From sequence record OZ346189.1: a DNA stretch of 64,000 bases; one strand, written 5' to 3'. Under the pieces are notes generated by a model. That model had not been told where the DNA came from, did no database searches, and worked only from the letters and a program-made list of their open reading frames with translations. Of this stretch, positions 33,586 through 46,617 are shown piece by piece. The stretch is from a phage. Position numbers and translations under genes: made by a program. Position 1 is the stretch's first letter. The number at the start of each line of letters is the position of its first letter.

Positions 33586-34350
33586 TTGAAATTCATCTAC
33601 AAAGAACACTACCACAAAGGTGTTGTGTGGAGTCTATTTGACGGGTCTGGTGGTGCAGTTATTGACTGGGCAAAAGCTGGGTACCTGTGCCTGTGCTTTA
33701 ATGCAGAAGGTGCTGACCACGGCAGTTATGCAGAGGTGATAACCGATCATCCTAACATTCACTATGTGGATTATTGGATTGACCCATGGTTCCCTCAGGA
33801 AACTTTTTGCATGTATCCAGCTCCAGACTTTATTCTTGCATTTCCTCCGTGCACGCATTTAGCGGTATCAGGTGCTGCACATTTTAAGAAAAAGCTGGCT
33901 AAGGATCCTTTGATCCAAATTAATGCTGTAAAGGATGCTCGGGTTGCGGAAGAGTTGGGAGAGATTTACGATTGCCCGTGGCATGTAGAGAATCCTGTAG
34001 GGGTTATGTCCACACTGTGGCGAAAACCTGATTACCGTTTTCATCCTTCGGATTATGGTGGGTATTTACCGGAGGATGATGTAAACCCCTGGTTTCCTGA
34101 ATTTATAGCTCCACGTGATGCCTACCCAAAAATAACTTGCGGCTGGATAGGCAATGGATTTATAATCCCGGCCACAAAACCTGTCCCGCAAATAGTTGAC
34201 GCGGTTAGCGGGTATTCCATGCAACACGCCAAGCTGGGTGGAAAGAGTGCAAGAACGAAGATGATCCGAAGCCTCACGCCACGTGGCTGGGCAAAAGCCG
34301 TATTCTTAGCAAACGAGCCTGTAGTAAGGAGCAGAATTAATGGGAAGTAA
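33586..34350 (+). CDS. small DNA (cytosine-5)-methyltransferase-like protein, atypical catalytic motif
   Basis: motif I LFDGSGG, motif IV PPCT (Cys kept, Gln replaced by Thr), motif VI VENPVG; track start GTG 33556 lies in the terminator hairpin, TTG 33586 behind RBS aggaga preferred. Confidence 0.55.
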   Translation: MKFIYKEHYHKGVVWSLFDGSGGAVIDWAKAGYLCLCFNAEGADHGSYAEVITDHPNIHYVDYWIDPWFPQETFCMYPAPDFILAFPPCTHLAVSGAAHFKKKLAKDPLIQINAVKDARVAEELGEIYDCPWHVENPVGVMSTLWRKPDYRFHPSDYGGYLPEDDVNPWFPEFIAPRDAYPKITCGWIGNGFIIPATKPVPQIVDAVSGYSMQHAKLGGKSARTKMIRSLTPRGWAKAVFLANEPVVRSRINGK

Positions 34351-36418
34351 ATTTATGGCATCTGCATACAACCGTTTCGGTGAGCCAAACCCGAAAGCAA
34401 TTAAGTATAAAAGTGGGGGAAGTGTGAAACGAGACTATCGTGATGAAAAAGAGGTTGAAACTGTAGAGACTGTTTTAGAAAATACTAAAATCGTCCCTGT
34501 CCCACAACAAAATATCGGTCTGATGGCTGCACAATATTTTGGTGTGCGATCAGCATTGTCCCAAGAAGACGGTGTGACAGTCACTGCAACATATTTCCCA
34601 TATTACGACCGATACGGAAATCTGTCCGGTTTCAAAAAGCGTGACTGGACTATTCCTAAAGAACAAAGGGGCCACTTCTCCGTTGTTGGCATAGTAAAGG
34701 CCAACTCCCAGATGTTTGGTCAAAAGCTGTGTGCATCTTCCAACAACCGTAAGCAGATTAACGTTTGTGAGGGAGAAGGTGATGTTATTGCAGCATGGCA
34801 GGCTGCATATCAGATACAAGTAAAAGGGATTCTCACCAACGCTAAAGCCCCGGCAAAGGTGAAGCAGTGGGCTAAAGAGGTCCAGGACGGGATCGACGCA
34901 GTTATCAACGGTGGTGATCTGGCAGGAAAACCCTGCCTGCCTTTTGTTGGAATTAACTGTGGATGTGCAAACGCAGTAGATACTTTTGCAAACAATGAGA
35001 AGTTTATCCGTAGCTATGGAACAGTTGTGCTGGCAATGGATAACGATGCAGCTAACGAGGTAGAGAAGCAAAAACACGTCATTAAAGGTGTTGAGGCCAC
35101 GCACAATATCGCAGCATTTTTGATGGCTGATAACGTTTACCACGTAGAATACCCTGGTGAAGTAAATGACCCTGACGGGGTAAAAGATATCCGTGACATG
35201 CTGAAGGCTAAAAAGCTGGAAGATATTGTCAACATGTTCCGGCACCCTGTTAAATATGTGCCTGATGCTGTGTCGGATTTAGAAGACTTCTCTATCGAGT
35301 CTTTGCGGAAAAAGACTTCCAACGGGGTAGATATCAGCGCAGAGTTCCCAAAACTGCAAAAAATGCTAAAAGGCTTGCACAAAGGGACACTCGTAATGCT
35401 TACAGGGCCATCAGGGGGCGGTAAAACAACTGTAGCTAAAAAACTGGAACATTGTATTGCAAGATACCTAATGGACCCGACATGCCCGAAGGCTGATGAC
35501 TATGAAGAGGATGATCGTCTATGTATGATCCATCTTGAGGAGGACCCAGAGGAAGCAATTAACTCCTTGTATGCAAACCAGTTAGGGTTTGATGTTAAAG
35601 AGTTTGTTGAAGATCCTAGCCAGTTTTTAACTGATCAAGAACACGCAGAGATTCACCAATCATGGGCAAAAGCTGGAAAAATCAAAGTGTTCAAACATTT
35701 CGGATCTATTCCGGTGGACGAGTTGATTACCAAGCTTAAGCAAATGGTTTGCCTGTACCATTGCCGTTATATTGTGCTGGATCACCTATCCATGGTAATT
35801 TCAGGGCTTAATGTTAAGGATGAGCGAAAAGAACTGGACATGGCTATGACTCAGCTGGCTGCGTTTTGTAAGCAGTTTAACGTGTTTATCTTGGTGATCG
35901 CTCACCTCAAACGTACAGAGATTGTGCCTCCTAAGGACAAGGATGGTAACCCGTTACCTTTCTGGTATCCTGTGCGAAAAGAGAATTTGCGAGGATCGGC
36001 GGGGCTTGAACAGTTGAGTTGGGTAGTCATAGGTGTCGAGGCCGAAGAAATGGTGGATCGTTCTCGTGGACGTGTCCGTCTGGTAGGTCTTAAAAACCGT
36101 CCAGCAAAAACTCTAGGTATTGCTGACACTTTGGTTATGGACCCGCACACAGGTAAGTTCCATGATGCCAGTAATTGGTACTGGGACAAAGAAATGCAAA
36201 TGTTTACAGACGGAGAAGGTGGGGAGGTTGTTTGGAGACCTCAGGCTATGTTTGAGGATCAGGAGCATGCAGTTGTAGAAACACCTATGGGCAAGGTTGT
36301 GGCTGATAAGGTTGTAACTCCTACTGTTAAGCCTGTTGACACGCAGGAAGACCTCCAGTACGATGATCCATCCTCTGACCCGGTCCCTGGTTTTGAGGAT
36401 GATGAAACGCCTTTTTAA
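34340..36418 (+). CDS. bifunctional DNA primase-helicase (T7 gp4-like)
   Basis: N-terminal Toprim-like EGEGDVIAAW and LAMDNDAANE; C-terminal helicase Walker A GPSGGGKTT and IVLDHLSMV. Confidence 0.8.
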   Translation: MGSKFMASAYNRFGEPNPKAIKYKSGGSVKRDYRDEKEVETVETVLENTKIVPVPQQNIGLMAAQYFGVRSALSQEDGVTVTATYFPYYDRYGNLSGFKKRDWTIPKEQRGHFSVVGIVKANSQMFGQKLCASSNNRKQINVCEGEGDVIAAWQAAYQIQVKGILTNAKAPAKVKQWAKEVQDGIDAVINGGDLAGKPCLPFVGINCGCANAVDTFANNEKFIRSYGTVVLAMDNDAANEVEKQKHVIKGVEATHNIAAFLMADNVYHVEYPGEVNDPDGVKDIRDMLKAKKLEDIVNMFRHPVKYVPDAVSDLEDFSIESLRKKTSNGVDISAEFPKLQKMLKGLHKGTLVMLTGPSGGGKTTVAKKLEHCIARYLMDPTCPKADDYEEDDRLCMIHLEEDPEEAINSLYANQLGFDVKEFVEDPSQFLTDQEHAEIHQSWAKAGKIKVFKHFGSIPVDELITKLKQMVCLYHCRYIVLDHLSMVISGLNVKDERKELDMAMTQLAAFCKQFNVFILVIAHLKRTEIVPPKDKDGNPLPFWYPVRKENLRGSAGLEQLSWVVIGVEAEEMVDRSRGRVRLVGLKNRPAKTLGIADTLVMDPHTGKFHDASNWYWDKEMQMFTDGEGGEVVWRPQAMFEDQEHAVVETPMGKVVADKVVTPTVKPVDTQEDLQYDDPSSDPVPGFEDDETPF

Positions 36419-36480: not shown

Positions 36481-39400
36481 ATGAGTATGTGGAATTTTGA
36501 CTTTGAGGCCTCAGGTCTTCTGGACGAGGAAGATCTTTACTACCATTGTGGCCTGTTTAAAGAGTTGAATAAAAATAATTTTATGTTGTTTTTGCCTATC
36601 AATGATAGATCTCATTACAGTGAAGAGGAGGTTGAAAAAGCAAAACAATTTATGCTGGCAAAGCAAGATATCTATCCTAGCTGCTCTGTCCGTATTGCGG
36701 ATTTCAGCCAGCTTGAATGGTGGTTAACCGGGAACTCCGATTGGTCACCCACATCATTAAGTTGTCACAACTGTTTTAGTTATGACTTTATCTTGATGGA
36801 GAAGCTGTCTGGTATTCATTTTGATATGTTCCGTGATCCCAAGTGTATGGGGACAATCAATAATCATCAGGTGAACCTGTTCGACACTCTGCCAATGAGT
36901 CGTATACTATGGCCCGACAGACCGTTACCTAAAGGATGCCCTGATTCTGTATACAATCCTGTTACAAAACGTATGCAGCAGGTAGGTCCTCATGGCCTAA
37001 TGGCGTGGGGGTACGCTTTAGGAAACCAGAAGGTTAAAATTGATGACTGGAGAAATTTACCTCTGTGGAAGTATGTTGATCGTGTATTCGAGGACGTTAT
37101 CATCCAGGAGCTGCTCTGGAAAGAGCTGGTAGCGGAATCAAAAGGTGTATTCTACGGCAAATCTGACATGCAGAACTTTATGTACGATCCAGCCAAAGAG
37201 AAGCCGAAAGGGTTCAAGAAGATTACCTGGAAGAATGCATTACGCCGAGGCATGCTGCAGCACTTCCTGATGGAGCTGCAGGCCCGTCAGGGTGTATACT
37301 TCGACATAGATGGAGCTATTGCTTTACGTGACCGTTGCGATGCGTGGATGAAAGAAATCGCTGATCGTGTTGAACCACAACTACCTTTAAAAGAGCTGTC
37401 AATGTCTCAGCGGCCCAAGTTCCCTGAAAAGCCGTTTAACCAAGACGGGACAATCTCTAATAATGGTTGGAAATGGTTAAAAGATAAGCTTGGCTATCCT
37501 GTAGACATGAGTGCTTTAGAGTTCAAAGCCCCGCCTAAGCGAGCATTTACCTCTACAGGAGATGTCAGCAAGATGGGGATAAAATGGTGTGAAGAGATGG
37601 GCTGCAAAGACCCCGATAAGATGGCTGATTTCTTGAGAGGCTATATTAAGGGCACCTCCACACCACAACCCTTACCTAAAGAGCTGATGGATCAGGCAAT
37701 AAGTGATCTGCAGCAGAAGCGAATGCCTGACTGCAAGATACCTATGAAAATCAGCAATCAGGACGACATCAAGCGATACCTAATCAGTGCTGGTTGGCTC
37801 CCAACAATGTGGAGAACTAAAGATGTAACTAAAGACAGCAAGAAGAAAGCTTTACCTGATGCAGATGTTGATGCACGAGTATATGCATATATGGACGAGC
37901 TTTTGGAGTCAGAGTATTGTGACCTAATTATCAACTTCTGGAACAAAACTGATGCTAAGTTCCAGACAACCGTGCACAAGTTCCGAAGCTTTCCTAACTC
38001 CGAAAGGATTAAAAAGGAAGTATTCGGGAAAATACGTAGAAAAGCCAGGGCACTTATTACTTCTCCGCAACTGAAAGATACGTTTGGACACCTATGCCCA
38101 AATCTTGAAAAATTGAACGGAGAGATGGCTAAAGATATCGTCTTGTGGTTATCATTGCGAAACCGCAGATCGGTCCTTGATCCAATCAAGGAGGATAAGG
38201 TTGATACTGGTCTTCTTAATCACCCACGTTTGAAGATTGACCATAAGCTTCCTGCTAAAAGCTCTGGATTAACAAACACTTCCAGACAGAAACACAGTAT
38301 TTGTGCAAACATGCCTAAACCATCTCCTAAAGTGGTTATGGGTAAAGAGATGCGTAGTCTGTGGGGTGTTCCTCCGGGATACTTTGAGATCGGTATTGAC
38401 GGGTCCAACTTAGAGCAGCTTATCGGGGCTTGGGGTGCCTTTGAGTTCGACAACGGCCTGTATTATGATGTTGTAAGTAATGGCGATGCACACTGTTATT
38501 CAGGAGATACACAAATTCTCACGGAGAAAGGGTGGGTGAGGTTTGAAGATCTTGATCCGGGAACACAAGTGTTCCAGTACGATCACAACACCTCGTCAAT
38601 GAACCTTGTTACTCCATTAAATTACGTTAAGCGTAGTTATTGTGGGGATATGTATCATTTCCACAACAGTAGTGTGGATTTTATGGTTACAGATCAACAC
38701 AGGATGCTGACTGTGGATCACAGAAGCAATAAATTGTTTGAAGATTTGGCAAAAGACCTGAAAGCAGGTAAAGGGTCTAATTCAGGAAGAAGGTTTATCC
38801 ATGCGGCAGAGTTTTATGGGAATACAACCTTATCTCCTGCCCAGGTTAATTTGCTTATTGCTATTCACGATGATGGGCACTTGCATACAAATAAGGACGG
38901 CAGCATCGTGTGCAGGATTCAGGTCGGAAAGGGAAGAAAAGTTGCAACGCTTTTAGATACTTTTTCTGCTCTAAGCCTTAGTTATGTAGAGCAGAGCGGG
39001 AAAACCACAAAAGGGGGCTTACTGGCGAGAAGGTTCCAATTCCACGTTCCGTCCTGGGTATTTGAGTTTTTGGACAACAATAAGGATTTCACCTATAACC
39101 TGATGAACCTTGATAAAGAATCTAAAAACCTGTTTATAGCTTCTTTATCTAACTGGGACGGGTGGGTATCTTCCGAAGGTGGAAAGGTTGCTTACTACTC
39201 CCAGGCCGAGTGCAGGAAGAAATCTGTAGAGGTGGTGTCTGCGCTGGCTACTCAGTGTGGTTTACGGAATAATACGGTGGCGATTCACAAAAAAGGTCGT
39301 GCCGTGCAGCACAGAATCACAATTGGTAGCAAACAGAGAGCAGGGTTGCTGACACTATCTAAAGAGTCTGTCGAGGTGAGCGGTTCTTTGGTTTATTGCG

Positions 39401-40503
39401 TTACCGTCCCTTCTGGAGCAATCATTGTGAGAAGGAATGGTAAAGTGGCAGTGTGCGGTAACTGTAATAACGCCAAAGCTTACTCTTCTGTAGCAGGCAA
39501 GGAGATTTCCCGTAACGATGGTAAACCTATCACGTATGGGGTTATGTATGGGGCACAAAAAGATAAAGTTGCAGATATGCTGGACATCTCCCCAGAGTTG
39601 GGACAAAGGGTAATCGATGCACTCTGGGATGCCAACCCAGGTCTTAAGGGGCGCAAAGAGGATCTGGAGAAATTCTGGGAAGCAACAGGTAAGAAGTTTA
39701 TCTACTCTTTTGATGGTCATGCTATCTGGACCCGATCTAAACACTCTTTACTTAATGCATACCAACAAAATGGCGGTGCATCGTTGTGTGACTTAGTTGG
39801 AATACTCATGCACCACCAGATGGTGAAGCGTGGGTGGTACGATGAAGGTGTTCGTCGTATTATTTATTACCATAAATAACATTGTGGCTTCATAGAGTAA
39901 TCTATGTCGAATAACCTCTTTAACTGCGGGAAGCCTAAACCTTATGGCAAGGTAATCCGCAACGAAGCGCTCAAAAGAGCGAACGCTCAGAGGCCATTCC
40001 GAAAGGAAGTAGACCAGCAAGTGCGGTCGAAATGGGAGGATTCCTGTGGTTGCTTATCATAGGAATATGAGATGGTCCGATCCTACGTGAAAACGTATGG
40101 CTATGCACGTAATGGTGCGGGGTAGCTTAACGACCTACCTGAACTATTGGATGAGTACCAACTTCAAGTGCCTGACACACCGAAGTATAAGACTGTGTAC
40201 ACCTTCGACACAATTGAAGAACTGGAAGCATTTAAGGCAGAGCAGGAAGCCAAACTTCATGTGTTCGACGGTCATAAGTACAAAAAGGCACGCAAGGATG
40301 AGGACGGAAACGAAGTGGTTGACAGAGACGGAAACACGGTGTACGATCCTATCCTGAACGATGACGGAAAGCTTGAACTTATCTGGAGCCCTGTGGGTGA
40401 AATGGTGGTACATTGCTTCTGGCAAGCTTCTAAAATGATGGGAGTCCCGTTCCAGATCACAGGTGAATACTTGTGTGGTCGTAATTGGGGTAATTGTCAC
40501 TAA
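36481..40503 (+). CDS. DNA polymerase, family A (T7-like), interrupted by an intein and a putative group I intron; exons 36481..39873 and 40150..40503
   Basis: Exo motif FDFEASGL; motif A region GIDGSNLEQL...NGDAH; post-intein AKAYSSVAG...ITYGVMYGA; exon 1 ends ...IIYYH; exon 2 starts DEYQLQV and ends RNWGNCH, like the T7 PNWAICH terminus. Confidence 0.75.
38494..39462 (+). mobile_element. intein (323 aa) with LAGLIDADG-type homing endonuclease domain, in the polymerase motif A region
   Basis: in-frame insertion between NGDAH and CNNAKAY; starts CYSGDTQIL, ends VAVCGN with +1 Cys; internal LLIAIHDDGHL and FIASLSNWDGW motifs. Confidence 0.65.
39874..40149 (+). ncRNA. putative ORF-less group I intron splitting the polymerase HDE motif C
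   Basis: exon 1 ends in U (39873), element ends in G (40149); intron GUGG (nt 11-14) pairs with exon CCAU (P1, U-G at splice site) and intron CAUU (nt 7-10) pairs with exon-2 GAUG (P10); in-frame stops exclude an intein. Confidence 0.55.
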
Positions 40504-42987: not shown

Positions 42988-43233
42988 ATGACTGAAGCAG
43001 TTGCTCGCGCAGGACAGAAAGTACGTTGTGTTGAAGTAGGTTTTGGTGGCAAAGGGTGTCAAAACTTGACTCAAGGCAAGGAATATGCTGTTATCTCTGG
43101 TGGTGGCGACGAAAGTATTGTGTTCGAGGGCCACATCCTGGATGCTGAAAACTTTGAAATCTTTGACGACGATGGGGATCCGATCACCTGCCTGCTGGAC
43201 GGGAATTGGGGAACTTTCGAAGTGATTGGCTAA
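42988..43233 (+). CDS. small protein, paralogue family 2
   Basis: 81 aa; LTQGKEYAVISGGGDESIVFEGHILD. Confidence 0.45.
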   Translation: MTEAVARAGQKVRCVEVGFGGKGCQNLTQGKEYAVISGGGDESIVFEGHILDAENFEIFDDDGDPITCLLDGNWGTFEVIG

Positions 43234-43316
43234 CAAATACCTATTGTAATTTACAGAAGGGGATGCTAAAATAGTGTCTCCTTCTATGTTGTTCAAATAA
43301 AATCGGAGATTCCATA

Positions 43317-43685
43317 ATGGAACAAATGAACGATCAAGAGTCGGTTGCGATGAACGAGCAAGAACAACCTCAAGAATTTTTCTTAGGGTTAAGTAAAGAT
43401 CAAGTGTCTCTTTTGCTAGTGCTTTCTTCTTTCATGGGAAGACTTCAGGAGCTCACACAACAACCGGAGGCTGAACAATTATTTCAGGCTCTGCGTGAAG
43501 AAGAAAAATATCGTCGTTTGGACTATGCCTTAGGTTGGGTAGCTCAACAACGAGATATGCTGATGGCCCTCTCTGGGACCACAAGTTTTGCAATGGGCCT
43601 GTTGGCTCAAGTTCAGGACAAATTAATTCAAGCAGGGTTTGCACACACGGCAAACACTAACGAAGAACAAGGAGACAAAGAATGA
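43317..43685 (+). CDS. hypothetical protein
   Basis: 122-aa ORF, RBS ggagattcc. Confidence 0.45.
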   Translation: MEQMNDQESVAMNEQEQPQEFFLGLSKDQVSLLLVLSSFMGRLQELTQQPEAEQLFQALREEEKYRRLDYALGWVAQQRDMLMALSGTTSFAMGLLAQVQDKLIQAGFAHTANTNEEQGDKE

Positions 43686-44908
43686 GCGTTATTCAACAAT
43701 TCGCTAACCCGATGAATCCGCGTGAAACTGTTTTACTGGCTCACGGCATGATTAAACGCGTCAGCATCAAGCCTATCAAAGGTGCTGATCCTACAACAGG
43801 TATTAAAACCACTGTGTGGCAAGGTAAGAAAATTGAATCCAGCCACACCATCTCTTTACTGATTTCTGAACTGGATTCCTCTGATAACCTACTTCAAGGT
43901 GGTGAAGAAGTTTGGATCAGTATGGGCGATAAGCTGCTTAAACCGGGTCATCAAGACTCTGTCTCTGTTAAAATTGATGACAAGTGGGAAACCGTAACGC
44001 CAGGATGGATCGTAAATATCCCTTTGAAGGCAAACGAGCATAACGGTAAGACCTACTACAAAGGCTCACTGGCTAAGATGGTTAAGCTGGGTGCAGGAGA
44101 GGCTCCAGCAGCGACTCAGCAGCAAAAACAGCAACAAGGTGCACAATCACAAGGCCAGAAGCAGAAACCTCAGCAGAATGCCAATCAGGACGTTTTACGC
44201 ATCTATGGTGATGTGACTCAGATTGTTGGCAACGTGGTTACTGTAAATGACCACAAGATTGGCGAAGGTGCTATGGTTGTAACTGATGAGCAGCTTAAAG
44301 ACCTGGTGGTAGGTGGTCGTGTTGCAGCCATTGTTGACAAAGACACTGGAAACATTATCAGTGGTTTCAAGGCCTATCCTCCTAAGGCAGAGAACGGCAC
44401 TCAAGGCTCCGGTGGCAAGCGTAAATCCTCTTACGACCCTATCGGTGTGGAAACGGGGCATAGCATCAATGCGTTGCAGATCATCCTGGATCGCGGGTTT
44501 AAGGTAGACGACCCACTGGGCGTGGCTAAAACACTGCACGTAGTCACCATTGAGCTTAAGAAAGAGTATGCTCAAGCCACCAACCGAACTGAAGATGAAG
44601 TAGGTGCCAGTGTCGGTAATGCGGTGTTGAACGCTTGTCGCCGTATTGACAAGAAAACGAAAGTTGATGATTTTGCAGCGGCAATTACTGCAGAAGCAAA
44701 AGATGTCTTGACTAATCTGGCTGAGCCGTTGTACGATTGGATCAAGAACGGTGCTGGGTCAACTGACCATCAAGAACCTCAGGCTGCCAAACAGGAAGCA
44801 GCTCCACAGCAAAACACTGTAGACGCTCCTCCTGTAAATGATGGGGAAGATGACCCGATGGATCAGAATCCAGCACAGTACGCCTTTGATGATGACATCC
44901 CTTTTTAA
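43682..44908 (+). CDS. putative ssDNA-binding protein with host-SSB-like acidic C-terminal tip
   Basis: 408 aa; Gln-rich linker; C-terminus ends AFDDDIPF, identical in its last six residues to the E. coli SSB tail. Confidence 0.45.
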   Translation: MSVIQQFANPMNPRETVLLAHGMIKRVSIKPIKGADPTTGIKTTVWQGKKIESSHTISLLISELDSSDNLLQGGEEVWISMGDKLLKPGHQDSVSVKIDDKWETVTPGWIVNIPLKANEHNGKTYYKGSLAKMVKLGAGEAPAATQQQKQQQGAQSQGQKQKPQQNANQDVLRIYGDVTQIVGNVVTVNDHKIGEGAMVVTDEQLKDLVVGGRVAAIVDKDTGNIISGFKAYPPKAENGTQGSGGKRKSSYDPIGVETGHSINALQIILDRGFKVDDPLGVAKTLHVVTIELKKEYAQATNRTEDEVGASVGNAVLNACRRIDKKTKVDDFAAAITAEAKDVLTNLAEPLYDWIKNGAGSTDHQEPQAAKQEAAPQQNTVDAPPVNDGEDDPMDQNPAQYAFDDDIPF

Positions 44909-44923
44909 CAATTAGTTAACATA

Positions 44924-44952
44924 GCCCTGCCCGAAAGGGTGGGGCATTTTTG
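44924..44952 (+). terminator. rho-independent terminator (copy 2 of the repeated hairpin)
   Basis: gccctgcccgaaagggtggggc followed by atttttg. Confidence 0.55.
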
Positions 44953-44970
44953 TATAAGGAGATCTGAAAA

Positions 44971-45387
44971 ATGACATTAGAAGATATCATTGTTAAACCT
45001 GAGAACTATGACCAATACAACCTGTCAACTCAATCTGTAGACCTTGGATGCGCCACAGTTAGTGCGTGGCTGGTTAATGGAAAAGAGCTGGACAAGTGCT
45101 TAGAAGCTCACATGTCTGTTAACAAGTTTCTGGATGAAAATACTCACTGGCTTGAGGGTGCTGGAGTATATGCTTCATGGTTGGAGAGCATGGGCTTTGA
45201 CTATCAATCTGATGAAGGGTGGTGGAGCTATCTGGCTATCTGTCCAGAAACACTGCAATGCTTCATGAAATACTCTGAAGATCTTGAGTACCGAGCGGTG
45301 GTTGATAGTGCTATTGCCCGTTATAGCCGTAAACCTTTTTCCCATGACATTAAAACTGTGGAAGAATTTGTTGAAGTTTTCTGTTGA
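44971..45387 (+). CDS. hypothetical protein
   Basis: 138-aa ORF, RBS aaggagatc. Confidence 0.45.
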   Translation: MTLEDIIVKPENYDQYNLSTQSVDLGCATVSAWLVNGKELDKCLEAHMSVNKFLDENTHWLEGAGVYASWLESMGFDYQSDEGWWSYLAICPETLQCFMKYSEDLEYRAVVDSAIARYSRKPFSHDIKTVEEFVEVFC

Positions 45388-45412
45388 CACAGGTTGAAAG
45401 GTGTGCAATTAT
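45384..45412 (+). promoter_or_regulatory. sigma70-like promoter
   Basis: ttgaca-N17-aattat overlapping the stop of 44971..45387. Confidence 0.4.
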
Positions 45413-45483
45413 AACTTCATAAAACGGGAGGACGCGATGAACGAAGAAAACTGGGATGTATAACTAACAGGAGACCACTGCCC

Positions 45484-45681
45484 ATGATTTATCGAATCCG
45501 TGTAAGAGAAGATGCACCAGGCTGTTACTTTGACTGGCGTGGGTGGTGGTTTCTCCACCCAATGGATGGACTCACAGATAGAATGCTGGATGCTGCCCTT
45601 TATACAGATACCGACATAGAATATAATCTCTATCTGAAGGACGGTATAGATAACGGTCTATTTGAAGCAATTCCTGTGTAA
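45484..45681 (+). CDS. hypothetical protein
   Basis: 65-aa ORF, RBS caggagacc. Confidence 0.4.
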   Translation: MIYRIRVREDAPGCYFDWRGWWFLHPMDGLTDRMLDAALYTDTDIEYNLYLKDGIDNGLFEAIPV

Positions 45682-45749: not shown

Positions 45750-46169
45750 ATGATCTATGAAATGCCAAAACTGATTCGTGACGATGCCCAAAACCACACC
45801 ATTATTATGGGTAAACGCATGAATATCCTTTGCCGTAACGATTTCTGTGGTGTAGAATACGTTGCAGACTACTTCGGTGAGAATGGTAAACACCCTGTTC
45901 AGTTCTTCCTTGACCATGAGGATAACATTATCTGGGAGTTTGAAACTGAAGATATCCGCAACCTCTTCATCTTCCTCGGTGTCAAGGTTAAGGCCAATTT
46001 CGCGGAAGGTGAGTGCGACGATTGTGGATTTTATGAGGTGACAGACTTCTATCTCCCGAGTGGCAAGAACATTTACTATGAGAGTCACTTCGGAAACACC
46101 AACATGCCTCAAAGCTGGGAAGAATTTTTCAGTATCGTAGAAGAGGAGCTGGCATACCGTGATTATTGA
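45750..46169 (+). CDS. hypothetical protein
   Basis: 139-aa ORF. Confidence 0.45.
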   Translation: MIYEMPKLIRDDAQNHTIIMGKRMNILCRNDFCGVEYVADYFGENGKHPVQFFLDHEDNIIWEFETEDIRNLFIFLGVKVKANFAEGECDDCGFYEVTDFYLPSGKNIYYESHFGNTNMPQSWEEFFSIVEEELAYRDY

Positions 46170-46617
46170 TACTGTAAAGGGAGATTTAATCTCCCTTTTT
46201 AAGAGCGGTGCTGGTCACCTAATCCACGGTTGTAACTGCTTCCACACAATGGGTAAGGGCATAGCAAAACAGATTGCCCGTGAGTTTCCTCAAGCATTGT
46301 CAGCCGACAAAGAGACCAGACACGGTTGCCTAAGTAAACTGGGTGCGTTCTCCCGATGGGAGCACTTATCTCCGAGAGGTATTGTCTACGGAATCAATCT
46401 GTATACTCAGTTCTACCCAGGGCCTAATGCTGAATATTTCTCAATCCTGAAAGGCTTTGAGCTAGTCAATGAGGTATTCGAGGGATCGACTTTACCATTC
46501 TACATCCCTAAGATCGGATGCGGCATAGGCGGTTTGAAGTGGGAGCACGTAGAGGACGTTATTAACCTCGCCACTTTTGATATAGATATTATCGTGGTGG
46601 AGTACAAAGAGTGTTGA
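46159..46617 (+). CDS. macro-domain protein (ADP-ribose binding/processing)
   Basis: GDL...AGHLIHGCNCFHTMGKGIAKQI fits the macro-domain pattern GDI...DAIVNAAN...GGGV.GAI; later IPKIGCGIGG fits the second glycine-rich motif. Confidence 0.5.
   Translation: MIIDTVKGDLISLFKSGAGHLIHGCNCFHTMGKGIAKQIAREFPQALSADKETRHGCLSKLGAFSRWEHLSPRGIVYGINLYTQFYPGPNAEYFSILKGFELVNEVFEGSTLPFYIPKIGCGIGGLKWEHVEDVINLATFDIDIIVVEYKEC

Follow-up and report, generated by a model that had tools for sequence, protein, structure and literature searches.

Why should a phage protein of 408 residues end in exactly the same residues as SSB, the E. coli protein that binds single-stranded DNA? The window analysed here, a stretch of 64,000 nucleotides from sequence record OZ346189.1, derives from an rV5-like myophage of E. 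coli, a Vequintavirus; phage therapy and biocontrol make wide use of large rV5-like phages. The protein is encoded at 43682-44908 on the plus (+) strand, as are all other window features described below. The region around its gene shares 99% identity with that of Bas56 AlexBoehm, and about a hundred other records match it at more than 95%. Window positions 43000-45500 also match 16 unannotated GenBank records named 'Campylobacter phage' (MG0656xx) in the phage database, four of which were shown at about 97.6% identity across the whole query; the host labels of these records look doubtful. Nearly all GenBank records examined annotate the gene as 'hypothetical', and a few recent ones name the SSB-like protein or a shorter homologue SSB.

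The gene and the predicted domains of its product

The open reading frame comprises 408 codons followed by TAA. It ends ...PAQYAFDDDIPF before the stop codon, the last residues of the encoded protein being ...QYAFDDDIPF. An intrinsic-terminator-like hairpin with a 9-bp G+C-rich stem and a T-run (44924-44945, or 44924-44955 as the whole feature) closes the transcription unit. Given a stop codon followed by a strong hairpin and T-run, the tip is a genuine free C-terminus in this genome. At the other end, the start ATG overlaps the stop codon of the upstream gene (ATGA), with GGAG about 8 nt 5' of the start. This upstream gene (43317-43685) is translationally coupled to the SSB-like gene and encodes a 122-aa protein of PHROG 7310 with an acidic, Gln-rich N-terminus. 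It is the immediate neighbour of the SSB-like gene in 13 of 13 three-domain loci, down to 21% identity, and its product is possibly a partner subunit of the SSB-like protein. One GenBank record also labels the 122-aa protein 'putative SSB'. Just 5' of the two-gene unit, a promoter-like site (43244-43285), for which the evidence is weak, overlaps a terminator-like hairpin. Three genes downstream of the SSB-like gene, a 152-aa protein (46159-46617) matches the Macro domain partially (E 1.6e-6, above the Pfam cutoff) and is annotated as a 'putative macro domain-containing protein' in JLBYU08.

Sequence searches place the SSB-like protein in PHROG 4477, an unannotated family that it matches across residues 1-408 (E 3e-173). 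It returned zero matches in Pfam at E values up to 1 and none among PDB sequences. The NCBIfam 'ssb' model (TIGR00621) aligns with the tail alone, scoring 11.7 bits against a cutoff of 53.95, and does not match the N-terminal 140 residues searched by themselves. An AlphaFold2 model built from a 25-sequence alignment contains three confident domains separated by disordered linkers and followed by a disordered tail. Structure prediction of the N-terminal domain, the check that the original prediction had proposed, gave an OB-fold: residues 1-140 (43682-44101) are all-beta and are predicted to form a five-stranded beta-barrel, superimposable on known SSB-type OB-folds, that is putatively ssDNA-binding. 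A Foldseek search of BFVD returned marginal matches (E 0.014-0.045) to proteins labelled DUF2815 or 'phage ssDNA-binding domain'.

Residues 141-170 (44102-44191) form a disordered linker (13 Q in 30 residues, pLDDT below 50) that leads to a small second beta-domain at residues 171-232 (44192-44377), which resembles a minimal OB-fold with the strand order beta1-3/short helix/beta4-5 in the AlphaFold2 model. A family-specific four-helix bundle follows at residues 252-355 (44435-44746). The remainder is a disordered acidic tail of variable sequence (residues 356-401; 44747-44884) that ends in the tip FDDDIPF (residues 402-408; 44885-44905). Residues 356-408 together carry a net charge of -11, and pLDDT is below 50 across residues 359-408. 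The Gln-rich low-complexity segment that had been likened to the disordered linker of SSB is real and predicted to be disordered, but it sits between folded domains; the counterpart of the SSB linker is the separate disordered tail at residues 356-408 that precedes the tip.

In its overall plan the protein resembles E. coli SSB and the canonical families PF00436 and TIGR00621, sharing an N-terminal OB-fold, a disordered low-complexity region and identical last seven residues, the very C-terminus being a D-D-D-[IL]-P-F motif preceded by a disordered linker. It differs in that its OB domain has no detectable sequence similarity to PF00436 or TIGR00621, and in its length of 408 residues, the OB-fold and the tail being separated by two additional folded domains.

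Conservation of the tip and the replication neighbourhood

The original prediction had equated the last six residues, DDDIPF, with the tip of E. coli SSB. Comparison with an SSB reference sequence verified against PDB 1eqq/4mz9 bears this out and extends the identity to seven residues, FDDDIPF (SSB residues 172-178). Acidic endings closed by PF occur in 2 of the 163 window ORFs of at least 60 aa, and chance is ruled out as the source of the shared tip.

A word-indexed homologue search yielded 56 clusters, and an exhaustive profile search yielded 249 representatives at the 50% level. Family members are carried mainly by large rV5-, PVP-SE1-, phi92- and phAPEC8-like myophages. Most are 250-300 aa long and consist of an OB-fold, helical bundle and tail; the middle beta-domain is an accessory that 32 of the 113 aligned members have. 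Conservation is highest at G22 and G108 of the OB-fold, at D252, G255, G259, H260, N263, G308 and G312 of the bundle, and at the tip. Calculated from 112 non-redundant family members, information content at the final six positions is 5.0, 4.4, 2.3, 2.1, 2.1 and 2.1 bits, compared with 0.3-0.6 bits at tail positions -11 to -30; from these values the tip is under strong selection. The proteins end in P-F or P-W in 112 of 132 full-length representatives, and in 10 more the motif lies just inside the end. In thirteen of the collected proteins the last 9-13 residues match those of E. coli SSB, for example EPPMDFDDDIPF. Judged from such alignments, the tip in enterobacterial phages tracks the host tail well past a generic acidic-plus-aromatic ending. 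A suitable annotation for PHROG 4477 and its shorter two-domain relatives is now 'SSB-like, OB-fold, host-type C-terminal tip'.

A replication block lies about 4 kb upstream of the SSB-like gene and encodes a PIF1-like helicase, a DnaB-type primase/helicase (34340-36418) and a Pol I-type DNA polymerase (36481-40503). In a sample of 20 related viral contigs fetched with a 10-kb flank, the SSB-like gene is downstream of, and co-oriented with, the polymerase and primase/helicase genes wherever both fall inside the flank. The same gene order also recurs at distant loci of 30-37% identity. The complete genome of the closest phage encodes a helicase, primase/helicase, polymerase, DnaQ-like exonuclease, 5'-exonuclease, ligase and EndoVII. 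Neither an SSB nor a recombinase was found in its annotation, and E. coli SSB gave zero matches against all of its ORFs in an unfiltered phmmer search. With no other SSB in this genome, the SSB-like protein is the sole SSB candidate.

The polymerase gene is interrupted near its 3' end by a group I catalytic intron at 39864-40099 (Rfam RF00028, full-length model, 64.7 bits, E 4e-14), and exon 2 probably extends to 40503; the Bas56 record gives its polymerase as two joined pieces that enclose a homing endonuclease. Within the ORF at 36481-39879, residues 664-1000 (approximately 38470-39480) match only the inserted part of otherwise unrelated intein-bearing PHROGs (PhoH, ribonucleotide reductase and thymidylate synthase) and, weakly, Pfam Hint_2. 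On these matches the segment is probably an intein.

Proposed function and its alternatives

We propose, with a probability of roughly 0.7, that the SSB-like protein is the phage's own replicative ssDNA-binding protein, a member of a non-canonical family whose DNA binding is putative. The proposal draws on the sequence, the predicted folds, the family-wide conservation of the tip, the synteny with replication genes and the lack of another SSB, which together support the ssDNA-binding role that the original prediction had put first. As a system, the protein is one version of an OB-fold SSB that bears an acidic docking tail, and it is probably a core replication protein. The N-terminal OB-fold would coat ssDNA at phage replication forks, perhaps assisted by the small second beta-domain, and the conserved four-helix bundle would serve self-assembly or partner contact. 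The flexible acidic tail would display the host-identical tip, which should fit pockets made for the SSB tip. Candidate owners of such pockets are host proteins (exonuclease I/SbcB, RecQ, PriA, RecO and others), the phage replisome, or both. The extended identity to the host tail and a connection to exonuclease I (ExoI) speak for host partners, and a T7-like pattern hints at phage partners; the two readings are mutually compatible. A phage SSB with the exact host tip offers a compact model of how a virus connects to, or competes for, the SSB repair and replication network of its host.

The connection to ExoI comes from work on an orthologue, Bas52_0087 (QXV84166.1) of Escherichia phage RudolfGeigy, which is identical to the window protein at 405 of 408 residues and has the same length, tip and position; the nucleotide sequences are 97.8% identical, and the three substitutions between the proteins, K369T, G388E and A401S, all fall in the tail. 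Sanchez-Nieto et al. (bioRxiv, 30 April 2026; 10.64898/2026.04.29.721553) isolated mutants of Bas52 that escape DRT10 (UG17), a reverse-transcriptase/SLATT (RT-SLATT) defence system. Both escape mutants carry substitutions in Bas52_0087, D252V and Y351C, and extra wild-type Bas52_0087 during infection strengthened restriction by DRT10 (10.64898/2026.04.29.721553). Bas52_0087 by itself is non-toxic, leaving host viability unaffected, and does not trigger DRT10 (10.64898/2026.04.29.721553). Host SbcB (ExoI) dampens DRT10, and the authors proposed that Bas52_0087 competes with or displaces SbcB (10.64898/2026.04.29.721553). At least one bacterial defence system, DRT10, depends on the SSB-like protein to detect infection, as seen with Bas52.

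The same preprint reads Bas52_0087 as SSB-like, with OB-folds, a disordered C-terminus and an FDDDIPF tip (10.64898/2026.04.29.721553). The same conclusion having been published for a 99%-identical orthologue, the finding is therefore already known. New here are the size and architecture of the family, the helical bundle that holds the escape sites, the quantified conservation of the tip, the replication synteny, the lack of another SSB, the tail of the primase/helicase and the endonuclease insertion at the tip. The two accounts differ over the escape sites. The preprint describes two OB-folds and places the sites at a 'putative oligomerization interface' (10.64898/2026.04.29.721553), whereas our model puts them in a separate four-helix bundle, predicted with very high confidence, in which conservation across the family is greatest. 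The window protein has both D252 and Y351; in the predicted model D252 opens helix 1 and Y351 lies close to where helix 4 ends; from the topology of the up-down-up-down bundle, the two residues would be at the same end.

The T7 replisome offers a precedent for a tip directed at phage partners. As a probable phage SSB with an OB-fold and an acidic tail ending in Phe, the window protein resembles T7 gp2.5, and as in T7 it accompanies a fused primase/helicase with a similar tail and a Pol I-type polymerase. The acidic, Phe-ended tail is common to the SSB-like protein (...AFDDDIPF) and the primase/helicase (...GFEDDETPF; 36392-36415). The tip might therefore be mainly an internal docking tag, by which both proteins dock on the phage polymerase and whose identity to the host tip reflects ancestry or convergence without any hijacking of the host. 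This alternative is compatible with a phage SSB, differing solely in the target of the tip, and we regard it as a tentative but serious possibility. In relatives at 72% identity the primase/helicase ends FPEDEDCPF, and across the whole Bas56 genome acidic endings closed by PF are confined, among real genes, to the SSB-like protein and the primase/helicase. The window polymerase also matches 'DNA polymerase I' PHROGs, and in T7 the polymerase is bound both by the acidic tail of gp2.5, whose C-terminal Phe is essential, and by a DTDF peptide that stands for the tail of gp4 (PMC12339929). Against a mainly internal role, many family members match host SSB across 9-13 terminal residues, beyond what a generic acidic-aromatic ending would need, more distant primase/helicases end ...Y without the D-D-D-I-P-F pattern, and the genetic tie of the Bas52 orthologue to an ExoI-controlled system points to the host interactome. 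The likeness to T7 has its limits too: the SSB-like protein has no Pfam sequence match to gp2.5-like families and has an extra helical domain, and in T7 the tails are not copies of the host's SSB tip.

An OB-fold joined to a helical domain could also belong to what is primarily a recombination protein, either a single-strand annealing protein or a RecO-like mediator, which would suit a phage lacking a recognisable recombinase. This is unlikely. Structural matches to RecO span only about 70-90 residues, corresponding to the OB-fold; the helical domain is unlike that of RecO and, searched alone, returns generic bundles with RecO not among the matches. The annealase families of Pfam and PHROGs likewise give no sequence match to the SSB-like protein. 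RecO binds the SSB tip and does not carry one. The original prediction had also raised a decoy, which would need no ssDNA binding and would soak up host proteins that recognise the SSB tip (such as ExoI, RecQ and PriA), disabling repair or defence. The identity of the tip to that of host SSB and the proposed competition with or displacement of SbcB (10.64898/2026.04.29.721553) speak for such a role. We nevertheless consider it quite improbable, as a decoy would need neither a conserved OB-fold nor a fixed place in the replication module, there is no second SSB in the phage, a buried tip is common among relatives, and the harmlessness of Bas52_0087 alone to host viability argues against strong sequestration of the essential SSB interactome.

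An endonuclease cassette at the tip

In 11 of the 56 homologue clusters the protein continues for 15 residues past IPF (APVGLQYGKSRIHAL and variants), and the same extension occurs in no fewer than 6 of the 20 nearest phage records. In phage SophiaRose (L002, 2406-3049) the extension is caused by a cassette of about 640 bp encoding a 207-aa ORF annotated as 'endonuclease VII', which has no match in Pfam. The cassette sits exactly after the codon of the tip Phe (corresponding to 44903-44908 in the window) and replaces the stop codon, so that the tip becomes internal; its flanks, terminator included, are collinear with the window. It is a free-standing homing-endonuclease cassette, found at this point of the gene in many relatives, and it is not a group I intron. 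Similar extensions are found in divergent lineages, with PVP-SE1 (L016) carrying the extended form.

In complexes with the SSB tip, the free carboxylate of the terminal Phe forms part of what is recognised. The viability of phages with an extended tip argues that either a free tip is not strictly essential or the extension has a role of its own. Phages with and without the cassette constitute a ready-made natural experiment on tip function.

These insertions can be combined with the other observations into a more speculative scenario, unlikely as a whole. The host SSB tip would be a shared address label on the SSB-like protein and primase/helicase, plugging the replisome together in the manner of T7 and vying with the SSB of the host for exonuclease I and further enzymes that bind the tip. 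The four-helix bundle, which holds the conserved D/G/H/N positions and the two DRT10-escape sites, would be a new assembly or signalling module read by defence systems, and homing insertions at the tip codons would create tip-masked variants with altered host interactions or immune visibility.

A D-to-C change (FCDDIPF) occurs next to the cassette insertion. The Bas56 orthologue (L001, 12683-13909; positions 74150-75376 of the record) ends ...YDFCDDIPF with the cassette absent, and this variant may be the footprint of past homing or co-conversion.
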